From assembly GCF_053078305.1 (NCBI RefSeq), contig NZ_CP166879.1: DNA of 64,000 bases; one strand, written 5' to 3'. The notes below the pieces were generated by a model. That model was not told the origin of the DNA and did no database searches. It was given only the letters and a program-made list of their open reading frames with translations. The position numbers and the translations under genes were made by a program. Below are positions 34,288-37,293 of this stretch, in pieces. Numbering within the stretch: the first letter of the stretch is position 1; every line of letters starts with the position of its first letter.

Positions 34288-35903
34288 ATGGCCAAAGCAC
34301 CAACTAAAAAAGCCAAAGCAAAGAAAGGCTTTGAAGAAACATTATGGGATACCGCAAACCAGCTTCGCGGTAGCGTTGAGTCCTCCGAATACAAGCACGT
34401 GGTGTTGAGCCTCGTATTCCTGAAATTCATCAGCGATAAGTTTGAAGCACGCCGCAAAAAAATGATTGCCGATGGGCAAGCAGACTTCCTTGAGATGGAA
34501 GTGTTCTACCAGCAGGACAACATTTTCTACCTGCCGGAAGAGGCGCGCTGGTCGTTTATCAAACAAAATGCCAAACAGGACGATATTGCGGTTCGTATTG
34601 ACACCGCCCTCTCGACCATTGAGAAACGTAACCCAACCCTGAAAGGCGCGCTGCCAGACAACTACTTCAGCCGTCAGAATCTGGAAACCAAAAAACTGGC
34701 GTCACTGATTGATACCATCGACAACATCGAAACGCTGGCACACGAAACTGACGTTGAAACGTTGTCGAAAGAAGACCTGGTCGGACGCGTTTACGAATAC
34801 TTCCTCGGTAAGTTTGCCGCAACCGAAGGCAAAGGCGGTGGAGAGTTCTACACGCCCAAATGTGTGGTCACGCTGTTAACTGAAATGCTCGAACCCTTCC
34901 AGGGCAAAATTTATGACCCGTGCTGCGGCTCGGCAGGGATGTTCGTGCAGTCGGTGAAGTTCGTCGAGAGCCATCAGGGTAAAAGCCGTGATATCGCGCT
35001 GTATGGTCAGGAACTGACACGACGTATAAACTGGCAAAAATGAACCTCGCCATTCGCGGTCTTTCAGCTAACCTCGGCGAACGACCGGCAGACACCTTCT
35101 TTAGCGACCAGCACCCGGACCTGAAAGCCGACTACATTCTGGCGAACCCGCCGTTCAACCTGAAAGACTGGCGTAATGAAGCCGAATTAACCAAAGACCC
35201 ACGTTTTTCCGGTTATCGTATGCCGCCAACCGGTAACGCCAACTACGGCTGGATTTTGCATATGCTCTCCAAGCTGTCGGCTAACGGTACAGCAGGTTTT
35301 GTGCTGGCAAACGGTTCGATGAGTTCTAACACCAGCGGTGAAGGCGAGATCCGTGCACAGATGATCGAAAATGATCTGATCGACTGCATGATTGCTCTGC
35401 CAGGTCAGTTGTTTTACACCACGCAGATCCCGGTGTGTTTATGGTTTATGACCAAATCGAAGGCTGCCGATCCGGCCAAAGGTTATCGTGATCGTCAGGG
35501 CGAGACGCTGTTTATTGATGCGCGTAACCTCGGCACCATGATTAGCCGCACAACTAAAGAATTAACGGCGGAAGATATTGCCACAATCGCCGATACCTAC
35601 CATGCCTGGCGCAGTACGCCAGAAGAACTGGCTGCACGGATTGCGCGTGGTGACAGCAAGCTGGAAAAATATGAAGACCAGGCAGGCTTCTGCAAAGTTG
35701 CGACCCTGCAAGATATTAAAGATAACGACTACGTGCTGACGCCGGGCCGCTATGTGGGTGCAGCCGAGCAGGAAGAAGACGGCGTGGCATTTGAGACCAA
35801 AATGCGTGAATTGTCGAAGACGTTGTTTGAGCAGATGAAGCAGGCGGAAGAACTGGATCGTGCGATTCGCCAGAATCTGGAGGCGCTGGGTTATGGGGAG
35901 TAA
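34288..35903 (+). pseudogene. hsdM: type I restriction-modification methyltransferase subunit, disrupted by -1 frameshift near 35014-35018
   Basis: ORF 34288-35043 carries AdoMet motif DPCCGSAGMF and ends [16 protein letters not shown] 35040-35903 in another frame continues [14 protein letters not shown]...NPPF; one missing base would restore [24 protein letters not shown] sequence. Confidence 0.7.
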
Positions 35904-37293
35904 AATTACACTCGCTGAAATATGTACAGATATTTCATATGGATATACAGCAAGCGCAACTGCGAAACCTGTTGGTCCTAAATTTCTCCGTATAACAGAT
36001 ATACAAGGAGGCAAGGTCAATTGGGAAAATGTACCTTATTGTGAAATAGATGAGAAAGACTCTTTAAAGTATTTATTGCAAGATGGTGATATCGTAATCG
36101 CAAGAACCGGAAACAGTACTGGCGAAAACTTTATATTTAGCTCAAATACAAAAGTAGTATTTGCATCATACCTAATTCGGTTCCGTATTGATCCAAAGAA
36201 AGCAAATCCCAAATTTATTTGGCTTCAAATGAGAACACCTCAATGGTGGAGTTTTATTGATTCCGTAAAAACTGGCTCAGCCCAAGCTGGAGCTAATGCA
36301 AAGGTTTTGGGACTGTATGAGGTTGAATTACCCGAAAGAAAAATTCAAGACCACATTGCTGATATTGGATTTAATTTACTAAAAAAACAGGATATTAACT
36401 CCAAAATAAACCAAACCCTGGAACAAATGTCCCAAACCCTGTTCAAATCCTGGTTTGTGGATTTTGATCCAGTGATTGATAACGCTCTGGATGCAGGAAA
36501 TCCAATCCCGGAAGCCCTGCAAACTCGCACCAAATTGCGTCAAAAAGTACGTAATAGTGCAGATTTTAAACCACTTCCGGCGGAAATCCGCTCGCTTTTC
36601 CCAAGTGAATTTGAAGAAACGGAGTTGGGTTGGGTACCTAAAGGTTGGGATGTCGTAAAAACTGAAGATATTGCTATAAAAATTGGCATGGGGCCGTTTG
36701 GTTCAAATATTAAAGCATCACAATTTGTTAGTAGCGGTATCCCAATCATTAATGGCCAACAACTTAAAGGGCTTATTTTAGAAAAAAATTTTATCAACTA
36801 TATTACTGATGAGCATGCAAATATTCTCAAGAATTCATTAGTATATGAACACGACATTGTGCTAACTCATCGTGGCACACTTGGTCAAGTTTCATTAATA
36901 CCAAAAAGAAAGGGAAATGAAAAATTTGTAATCTCTCAGAGCCAATTCTACTTAAGAGTTGATAGGAAAAAATGTTCACCTTTTTATATGATACATTTTT
37001 TAAAATCTAGAATTGGTCAGGAAGCATTACTCTCCAATGCTTCTCAGGTGGGGGTTCCTTCTATAGCTCGTCCATCAACCCATTTAAAAAAAATAACTTT
37101 CATAAACCCACCATTATCACTGCATAAACTCTTTGACAATGAATTTGAAGTGATACTAGAAAAAATCATGAATTGCAAAGAGCAGTCACTGGCCCTAACC
37201 GCACTCCGCGACACCCTGCTCCCGAAACTCATCTCCGGTGAGCTATCCCTGGAAGATCTTCCGGATCTCACCACCGATACAGAAGCCGCATAA
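35893..37293 (+). CDS. hsdS: type I restriction-modification specificity subunit
   Basis: ATG at 35893 overlaps hsdM stop; two AT-rich target-recognition domains with conserved central and C-terminal (LPKLISGEL) regions. Confidence 0.85.

Follow-up and report, generated by a model that had tools for sequence, protein, structure and literature searches.

A putative Type ID hsdS gene of Escherichia coli with AT-rich target-recognition domains shared as cassettes between strains and genera

Described Type I Systems Related to the Locus

Type I restriction-modification systems work through two assemblies, M2S1 (the methylation complex) and R2M2S1 (the restriction complex), and it has long been known that their specificity genes, hsdS, carry AT-rich, swappable target-recognition domains (TRDs). 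The prototypes of the Type ID family are StySBLI (CGA N6 TACC), EcoR9I (AGCA N6 TGA) and KpnAI (GGCA N6 TTC). A family of Type I systems is formally defined by in vivo subunit complementation (PMC12707154, PMC3874165), and Type ID systems occupy 12% of the loci of the immigration control region, a variable island (PMC12707154). EcoMII has been knocked out in the ST131 strain EC958, which removes m6A at AAC(N4)CTTT (Forde et al. 2015, PMC4659465). The same study puts the identity between the R subunits of EcoMII and StySBLI at 92%.

Reassortment of Type I TRDs, natural or in the laboratory, is represented by the StySQ/StySJ hybrids (Gann et al. 1987), as cited in PMC12707154, and by the TRD combinations of Helicobacter pylori, as summarised in PMC12255300. 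The hsdS gene described here is comparable to these in that new specificities would arise via recombination in the conserved region between the TRDs, with the half-sites following the TRDs; unlike them, exchange is known here from population genomics alone (cassettes found re-paired, including across genera). The hsdS gene of EcoKI (K-12, Type IA) has the same plan of two TRDs alternating with two conserved regions (TRD-CR-TRD-CR) and also the same kind of compositional mosaic (GC 0.31-0.38 in the TRDs, 0.44-0.45 in the central region and 0.55 in the C-terminal region), and its TRD2 is a distant homologue of TRD1 of the present gene (27% identity, E = 2e-14), but EcoKI belongs to another family, with the gene order hsdR-hsdM-hsdS and different conserved regions.

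Organization of the hsd Operon

All positions given here refer to the window, that is, the whole stretch of 64,000 nucleotides from contig NZ_CP166879.1 that was analyzed, and all the features described lie on the plus strand. Positions 35893-37293 are hsdS, the gene for the specificity subunit of a chromosomal Type I hsdM-hsdS-hsdR operon: two stretches of its product match Pfam Methylase_S PF01420 (E = 1.9e-15), and the same CDS is annotated as hsdS in the near-identical strain TUM13936. [quoted passage not shown] Directly upstream of it there is a gene (33058..34224) for a 388-aa Mrr_cat-type restriction endonuclease (Pfam Mrr_cat and NA-iREase1), 98.2% identical to its EC958 counterpart (named 'Mrr' in the EC958 literature), whose position is kept in TUM13936, AF16, GF3-3, EC958 and Enterobacter bugandensis. 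The hsdM gene is split into a 5' fragment (34288..35043), which contains Pfam HsdM_N and N6_Mtase profile positions 2-86 and is cut short by a premature stop resulting from a frameshift, and a 3' fragment (35040..35903), which contains N6_Mtase profile positions 95-311 in a different reading frame and whose stop overlaps the hsdS start by 11 nt. The hsdR gene (37388..40651), 95 nt downstream of hsdS, is intact and codes for 1087 aa with Pfam HSDR_N, SWI2_SNF2, T1R_D3-like and T1RH-like_C domains; its start codon matches the start annotated in TUM13936.

The domain boundaries of hsdS were taken from an alignment of 11 alleles. TRD1 (35893..36417, aa 1-175) is an AT-rich variable cassette made up of a globular domain together with the first, variable half of a long helix; it is followed by the central conserved region CR1 (36418..36648, aa 176-252), which is part of the family framework and a crossover site, by TRD2 (36649..37194, aa 253-434), a second AT-rich variable cassette, and by the C-terminal region CR2 (37195..37293, aa 435-466 plus the stop codon), which is conserved in all alleles. 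The limits given for the two TRDs in an earlier note on this DNA (35.9-36.4 and 36.65-37.1 kb) are close to these, except that TRD2 extends to about 37.19 kb. An AlphaFold model of HsdS (pLDDT 83) follows the plan TRD-helix-TRD-helix, with strands and helices at residues 3-146 and long helices at residues 149-189 and 408-447, CR2 contributing the end of the second one. When this model was compared with the PDB by Foldseek, the top matches were all S subunits (1yf2, 2y7c_A, 7vru_C, 3okg, 7bst_A), those named among the best being 1yf2, the EcoKI S model, PacII S and EcoR124I S. The fold predicted for HsdS is thus that of the solved HsdS structures, with two globular TRDs and two long helices that separate them.

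The operon shares with EcoMII of EC958 its locus and gene order (brnTA, Mrr_cat endonuclease, hsdM, hsdS, hsdR, symE); the HsdR proteins agree at 99.6% identity and the HsdM proteins, compared through the intact TUM13936 copy, at 99.8%; CR1 has an equal length (231 nt) and CR2 is 97% identical. In contrast, both TRDs are unrelated to those of EcoMII (HsdS is 38% identical overall and the TRDs at most 26%), and the hsdM gene described here is broken. The identity to EcoMII, taken together with the published EcoMII/StySBLI figure, indicates that the operon probably belongs to the StySBLI-like Type ID family. The likeness of its framework to the Type ID prototypes (StySBLI, EcoR9I and KpnAI) would run through EcoMII, and its location in the immigration control region matches theirs. 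Membership of Type IA (EcoKI) or Type IC (EcoR124I) was considered and rejected, since the similarity of the M and R subunits is weak: HsdM reaches 71 bits with EcoKI M and 136 bits with EcoR124II M, and for HsdR the score with EcoR124I R is 88 bits and EcoKI R gives no match.

Base Composition along hsdS

The earlier note described both TRDs as markedly AT-rich and the conserved regions as backbone-like in composition. The description of the TRDs is correct: TRD1 (35893-36417) has a GC content of 0.358 (0.257 at third codon positions, GC3) and TRD2 (36649-37194) of 0.335 (GC3 0.258), compared with a window mean of 0.499, and both are under the 5th percentile (0.373) of 450-bp windows across the stretch (SD 0.06). 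The description of the conserved regions applies to the short CR2 (37195-37290, GC 0.583, GC3 0.594) but not to CR1 (36418-36648, GC 0.459, GC3 0.390), which is intermediate. In Fisher tests the TRDs differ from the CRs at all positions (p = 1.9e-6) and at third positions (p = 2e-4), and from hsdR in GC3 (p = 5e-15). The GC3 of CR1 is significantly under that of hsdM (0.59; p = 8e-4) and of the flanking core genes (0.63-0.69), but it is indistinguishable from that of hsdR (0.49; p = 0.10), a gene that lies itself somewhat under the backbone (GC 0.456), while hsdM is slightly lower than the flanking core genes.

The same mosaic is present in all 11 alleles compared at the locus and in the unrelated EcoKI hsdS. 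CR1 measures 231 nt in each of these 11 alleles, EcoMII included, with a GC content of 0.46-0.48, and AT-richness is common to all the TRD types examined, however different their sequences. Furthermore, the GC3 of CR2 follows the host (0.59 in E. coli, 0.72 in Kluyvera and 0.84 in Enterobacter) whereas that of TRD2 stays at 0.24-0.26. Because all the alleles of the locus and the EcoKI hsdS show it, the mosaic says nothing particular about this allele, and low GC in hsdS is no evidence of a recent event in any given allele. A literature search on a published hsdS GC mosaic, or on methylomes of carrier strains, found nothing specific.

Exchange of Recognition Domains between Strains and Genera

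Exchange of the specificity domains, which the earlier note had proposed from the mosaic, is borne out by comparison between strains and genera and not by composition. Among 5426 E. coli genomes, 868 match hsdS at 80-99% nucleotide identity (810 of them at 90-99%), nearly all via CR1 and/or CR2 only; the full allele is found in one genome, TRD1 in two and TRD2 in two. Some 790 E. coli genomes carry the locus. Among the 5426 genomes TRD1 is present only in TUM13936 (100% nucleotide identity) and in AF16 (99.8%), where it is joined to a different TRD2, and GF3-3 carries the shared TRD2 (100%) joined to a different TRD1; the blocks of identity that the present gene has in common with AF16 and with GF3-3 switch within CR1. 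A search for full-length HsdS proteins, analyzed per domain, recovered TRD1 paired with 6 types of TRD2 and TRD2 paired with 9 types of TRD1, in a database sample biased towards relatives of the query; 56 full-length proteins of the family contain 21 TRD1 types and 13 TRD2 types in 33 combinations. When each TRD was compared by tblastn with the PLSDB plasmids, the best among the matches listed reached 47-48%, giving no sign of a plasmid source.

The sharing also extends to other genera. The TRD2 of Kluyvera intermedia (GCA_041359195.1) is 98.0% identical in nucleotide sequence (96.7% at third positions), within a framework that is only 85.5% (hsdM), 89.2% (CR1), 82.5% (CR2) and 81.6% (hsdR) identical, and the block of low divergence spans about 36606-37235. 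In Enterobacter bugandensis TRD2 is 94.0% identical, and the flanking framework identity in these two species is 80-89%. In principle, strong purifying selection acting on an ancient polymorphism common to the genera could also have kept TRD2 nearly identical among them, but the third-position identity of 96.7% argues against it, and we infer a transfer between genera that would be recent, whatever its direction. The contrast between E. coli and Kluyvera (cassette 98%, framework about 82-89%) offers a clean, quantifiable example of inter-genus TRD transfer.

According to the earlier note, a match of both domains to a single known HsdS over its full length would refute its reading. Such matches exist: public E. 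coli assemblies contain an identical HsdS protein (P0241), on 23 contigs or more, and the hsdS of TUM13936 is 99.6% identical in DNA over its full length. The exact protein is thus already public and the allele is not novel; exchange is nevertheless not refuted, because the matched proteins are annotated, not characterised.

The hsdM Lesion

The frameshift in hsdM is due to a 4-bp deletion after about position 35017 (CTGACAGCCACGACG -> CTGACACGACG), the site reading GACACG here and GACAGCCACG in the undeleted gene. The gene is intact in five relatives, and the intact HsdM of TUM13936 has 539 aa. TUM13936 and GCA_043582385.1 are examples of strains that carry the intact allele. Over 7.4 kb, one E. 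coli assembly (L018) differs from the window only by the 4-bp indel and 2 SNPs. A database look-up returned no record of the truncated HsdM product, and the frameshift is therefore apparently private to this genome; it could be an assembly error. The deletion has probably inactivated both modification and restriction, leaving hsdS intact but stranded, so that the strain would probably be restriction- and modification-negative for this system, a point relevant to how readily it can be transformed and take up plasmids. Type ID hsd operon with a dead hsdM is an annotation that can be given to the locus with confidence.

Origin of the AT-Rich Domains

Very probably, the gene is a Type ID hsdS whose AT-rich TRDs are reassorted as cassettes between strains and genera, in an operon whose hsdM is probably dead. 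Each TRD would read one half of a bipartite DNA target, and the conserved helices would fix how far apart the half-sites lie and provide the docking sites for two HsdM subunits. The TRDs would be AT-rich cassettes drawn from a pool common to the Enterobacteriaceae, which homologous recombination within conserved stretches of the operon (CR1, CR2 and the 3' end of hsdM) would reassort between strains and genera, each new pairing giving a new specificity, while the framework would follow the host lineage, in base composition as well. The GC mosaic would then be a standing signature of this modular history, common to all alleles.

It is unlikely that the low GC of the TRDs arose in place, the conserved regions recombining often and being pushed towards GC by GC-biased gene conversion, or homogenised to the host, while the TRDs, which cannot be aligned with one another and would seldom recombine internally, drift under AT-biased mutation. 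This would account for the CR2 GC3 that tracks the host (0.59, 0.72 and 0.84) next to a constant TRD2 (0.24-0.26), and for the AT-richness of all TRD types examined regardless of sequence; it is, however, compatible with the independently demonstrated cassette exchange, to which it would add a cause and not a replacement, and it is speculative because GC-biased gene conversion is established in bacteria in outline only. A related and rather doubtful extension of the cassette reading holds that the AT-rich TRDs form a long-lived inter-genus pool with actively maintained low GC, and are not simply un-ameliorated foreign DNA; being unalignable, the TRDs would escape the recombination-linked GC enrichment acting on the conserved spacers. 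If this were true, GC-biased gene conversion in enterobacteria could be measured on hsdS, through the contrast that the gene naturally contains. The TRDs are rich in Lys, Asn, Ile and Phe, and their AT-richness might be a mere by-product of the amino acids of DNA-binding domains, carrying no historical signal, but this is very unlikely, given that the deficit is strongest at third positions (GC3 0.26 in the TRDs against 0.39-0.59 in the CRs and 0.59 in hsdM), that synonymous sites carry the signal and that expression level is equal along one gene.

That a low-GC donor supplied the whole hsdS, or the whole hsd island, in a single import, the mosaic being noise, agrees with the position of hsdR below the backbone (GC 0.456, GC3 0.49) and with the variability known for the immigration control region (PMC12707154), yet we find it highly improbable in view of the significant within-gene contrasts, of the block-wise identity (near-identical TRDs inside a divergent framework and the reverse) and of an hsdM composition barely under that of the flanking core (GC3 0.59-0.61 vs 0.63-0.69). 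Decay of a stranded hsdS after the loss of hsdM, which the frameshift might bring to mind, has a negligible chance of being the cause of the composition, as the HsdS protein is identical to copies adjoining an intact hsdM, 7.4 kb of the locus differ from an intact-hsdM locus in nothing but the 4-bp indel and the 2 SNPs, and intact alleles share the same composition. Shuffling of TRDs by inversion is established in Mycoplasma, Streptococcus and Bacteroides, but we give virtually no credit to a phase-variable shufflon here, with TRDs exchanged within one genome by site-specific or inverted-repeat recombination: the 64-kb window holds no second copy of the conserved regions, no long inverted repeats lie in hsdS or its surroundings, and the operon has no recombinase gene.

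Recognition Sequence

The earlier note regarded the recognition sequence as probably not shared with characterised systems. Membership of the Type ID family predicts a bipartite target in which 6 bp separate the methylated adenines; the EcoMII site, AAC(N4)CTTT, would be compatible with this interval, and the constant CR1 length of 231 nt in all alleles compared would fit it as well. The EcoMII specificity is not transferable to the present system because both TRDs are unrelated. In a comparison with the TRDs of EcoKI and EcoMII, neither TRD exceeded 27% identity, and a sequence search of the PDB gave no solved structure closer than EcoKI TRD2, a distant match to TRD1; this match was discarded as a predictor of the half-site, being too distant to be usable. 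Moreover, TRD similarity is not a necessary guide to the half-site, because TRD1 of EcoKI and TRD1 of EcoMII both read AAC without detectable similarity. This pair of TRDs may define a Type ID specificity that has yet to be catalogued, and the strains that share a single cassette (AF16 for TRD1; GF3-3 and Kluyvera intermedia for TRD2) would let each half-site be assigned.

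Family assignment and organization of the hsd locus

The hsdS gene (35893-37293) belongs to a known family, of which it is an uncharacterised representative, and its locus is probably inactivated in this genome. It is an ORF of 466 codons whose start and stop coincide with those of the TUM13936 gene annotated as 'restriction endonuclease subunit S' (99.6% DNA identity), and a Pfam profile search detects two Methylase_S stretches in its product. It lies directly downstream of a split hsdM, composed of a 5' ORF (34288-35043, containing HsdM_N and N6_Mtase profile positions 2-86) and a 3' ORF (35040-35903, N6_Mtase positions 95-311), and upstream of an intact hsdR (37388-40651). 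A gene coding for a 388-aa Mrr_cat endonuclease (33058-34224) precedes hsdM, and the gene order (btsT, yjiX, yjiA, brnTA, endonuclease, hsdM, hsdS, hsdR, symE, yjiR) is that of the E. coli immigration control region (PMC3874165, PMC12707154).

In E. coli, as in the Enterobacter bugandensis locus (L017), the endonuclease (Mrr_cat/NA-iREase1) is always found just 5' of the Type ID hsdM, while mcrBC takes its place in the Kluyvera intermedia locus (L015); it differs from the 304-aa Mrr of K-12 and had no match in an NCBIfam search. A BrnT/BrnA toxin-antitoxin pair is encoded on the minus strand (32285-32888) in the interval from yjiA to the endonuclease gene; in E. coli AF16 (L002) the BrnT copy is a truncated pseudogene. 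The 95 nt from the hsdS stop to the hsdR start contain a hairpin (37322-37365; 18-nt arms, 83% complementary, 8-nt loop) that may be a terminator or attenuator setting hsdMS apart from hsdR expression.

HsdR is 99.6% identical to that of EcoMII, the Type I system of E. coli EC958, which has the same gene order at its locus and an HsdM sharing 99.8% identity with the intact TUM13936 protein. In the study of EcoMII (PMC4659465), knock-out abolished m6A at AAC(N4)CTTT, and the R subunit was reported to be 92% identical to that of StySBLI, the founder of Type ID (PMC3874165, PMC12707154). The subunits of EcoKI (Type IA) and EcoR124I (Type IC) match those of this operon weakly. Taken together, these likenesses would place the operon in Type ID, the link to StySBLI coming from the literature. 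Of 5426 complete E. coli genomes, about 790 have the framework, in line with the 12% share of immigration control regions attributed to Type ID (PMC12707154). The formal criterion for membership of a family is complementation. Families also have a characteristic distance between methylated bases, 6 bp in Type ID (PMC12707154), and the central conserved region of HsdS (CR1) does not vary in length among the eleven alleles aligned, so an active enzyme containing this HsdS is predicted to recognise a bipartite target with 6 bp between methylated bases.

In an AlphaFold model of HsdS, obtained from 36 family sequences (mean pLDDT 83), the first target-recognition domain (TRD1, residues 3-146) is followed by a helix of 41 residues (149-189) and three short conserved helices (193-233), and the second (TRD2, 240-405) by a helix of 40 residues (408-447). 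Each long helix is divided between the variable cassette, which includes its first half, and the conserved framework, which includes its second. The best-matching PDB entries for the model are without exception S subunits, namely 1yf2, the EcoKI S model, PacII S, EcoR124I S and the HsdS of T. tengcongensis and M. genitalium.

Probable inactivation of hsdM

At 35017-35018 all five comparators read CTGACAGCCACGACG and the window reads CTGACACGACG, a 4-bp deletion that splits hsdM and cuts HsdM short at residue 251, within the N6_Mtase domain. Over 7.4 kb, this indel and two SNPs are the only differences from one of these five close relatives, the E. coli assembly L018, whose hsdM is intact, and the truncated product has no record in a public gene index. 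That hsdS and hsdR remain intact fits an event of very recent date. Either the deletion is an inactivation private to this genome and very recent, or it is an assembly error. Type I restriction requires the M2S core, so that, assembly error aside, a strain with this truncated HsdM would most probably be r- and m- for the system. In E. coli NMBU_W05E18 (L006, positions 1-1068) the same Type ID gene hsdM is cut short by an inserted IS26, a second, independent route to inactivation of the system.

Compositional mosaic of hsdS

Module boundaries were set by aligning eleven alleles of the locus. TRD1 (35893-36417; GC 0.358, GC3 0.257) and TRD2 (36649-37194; GC 0.335, GC3 0.258) both have a GC under 0.373, the 5th percentile for windows of 450 bp, the overall mean being 0.499. 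The difference from the conserved regions has p = 1.9e-6 over all positions and p = 2e-4 at third positions; against hsdR, third positions give p = 5e-15. The earlier note described AT-rich recognition domains in a backbone-like framework; this mosaic is real, lies where it was placed and exceeds chance, and the 96-nt C-terminal conserved region (CR2, 37195-37290; GC 0.583, GC3 0.594) matches the backbone, but CR1 (36418-36648; GC 0.459) is intermediate, with a GC3 of 0.390 against 0.59 in hsdM (p = 8e-4) and 0.63-0.69 in yjiA, btsT and yjiR. Because synonymous positions show the deficit most strongly and the segments belong to one gene, neither amino-acid composition nor expression level can explain it.

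The same profile is found in all eleven alleles, whose TRDs are unrelated (GC 0.30-0.38 in TRD1, 0.46-0.48 in CR1, 0.28-0.36 in TRD2 and 0.52-0.58 in CR2), and in the EcoKI hsdS of K-12, from another family, with TRDs of GC 0.31-0.38 (GC3 0.12-0.26), a central region of 0.44-0.45 and a C-terminal region of 0.55 (GC3 0.66), EcoKI hsdM and hsdR having 0.54-0.55. The mosaic is therefore generic and no property peculiar to this allele, and composition alone tells nothing of a recent event in this hsdS.

Other AT-rich stretches (GC 0.32-0.39) are present at 15650-16300, overlapping an ORF for a LuxR-type (GerE) regulator (15261-15986), and at 27600-28600, upstream of btsT, with a 180-aa ORF lacking any Pfam match. 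The most AT-rich stretch of the window (GC about 0.29-0.33) contains an ORF for a 724-aa pentapeptide-repeat protein (49826-52000). A gene for an inverse autotransporter/invasin-like adhesin (54566-59806, 1746 aa) codes for IAT_beta and many Big_1 and Invasin_D3 repeats.

Exchange of cassettes within E. coli

Recombinational exchange of specificity domains, previously read from composition, is correct on the basis of comparative data, and has long been known (Gann et al. 1987 and later work, as cited in passages of PMC12255300 and PMC12707154). hsdS is matched at 80-99% nucleotide identity in 868 of 5426 E. coli genomes (810 of them at 90-99%), nearly always through CR1 and/or CR2 only, and the whole allele occurs in just one. 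TRD1 DNA at 99.8% identity or more is confined to TUM13936 and AF16, and TRD2 DNA at 99% or more to two genomes, the one among the matches listed being GF3-3 (100%); in the alignment, TRD2 of TUM13936 differs by one base. AF16 is identical to the window over about 35830-36460, with differences then saturating at 36640-37210, whereas GF3-3 has the reverse pattern, with no differences across 36640-37210. Both switches are located within CR1, a patchwork of shared SNPs. Another TRD2 is common to AF16, NMBU_W05E18 and YZ3-11, which carry three different TRD1s.

In the protein database, the exact HsdS (P0241) is found on at least 23 E. coli contigs, so this allele is already present in public assemblies. 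Across the 56 full-length family members, 21 types of TRD1 and 13 of TRD2 occur in 33 combinations; this TRD1 has 6 TRD2 types as partners, and this TRD2 has 9 TRD1 types. These counts are illustrations rather than frequencies, as the sample is biased to relatives of the query. A phase-variable shufflon was rejected, since conserved-region sequence is single-copy in the 64-kb window and long inverted repeats are absent from the operon; the variation is thus allelic, between lineages.

Transfer between genera and origin of the low GC content

The loci of Kluyvera intermedia and Enterobacter bugandensis share with the window 85.5% and 85.6% nucleotide identity, respectively, at the hsdM 3' end, 89.2% and 84.8% in CR1, 82.5% and 81.2% in CR2, and 81.6% and 80.2% in hsdR. 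In TRD2 identity rises to 98.0% and 94.0%, far above the framework, which implies that this cassette moved between genera later than the framework diverged. The low-divergence block in Kluyvera (about 36606-37235) matches the compositional block. Such near-identity could alternatively reflect ancient polymorphism held by selection, an unlikely reading given that third positions of TRD2 are 96.7% identical in Kluyvera. No near-identical TRD1 was found outside E. coli in the protein sample, the best being 73-74%, in Enterobacter and Salmonella.

The TRD2 cassette keeps a GC of 0.32-0.33 in hosts whose hsdR GC3 is 0.59-0.70, and CR2 GC3 follows the host genus (0.59, 0.72 and 0.84 in E. coli, Kluyvera and Enterobacter), favouring TRDs as a cassette pool that circulates among genera without taking host composition, while the framework takes it. 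Low-GC donors, AT-biased drift in segments that rarely recombine internally and an absence of GC-biased conversion are candidate causes of the low GC, and differential conversion possibly contributes. Decay after hsdM loss was discarded, because L018 is nearly identical and the composition is consequently older than the lesion.

Recognition sequence

The earlier proposal that the recognition sequence is not shared with characterised systems is plausible. The TRDs of EcoKI and EcoMII, the two characterised systems aligned, are at most 27% identical to these, and a PDB sequence search returned no solved structure closer than the EcoKI TRD2 match. Single HsdS proteins do match both domains, but only as uncharacterised database entries.

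Six HsdS proteins from the database search (P0279, P0285, P0322, P0334, P0336 and P0338) have another framework, with CR1 only 29-44% identical, and hold domains related to TRD1 (55-64%) and TRD2 (42-55%) in the order found here, suggesting that this pairing, perhaps with the same target, may exist in another Type I family too. In three others (P0343, P0349 and P0350), TRD2 relatives (45-51% identity) occupy the N-terminal position, indicating that the TRD2 cassette is not bound to one slot.
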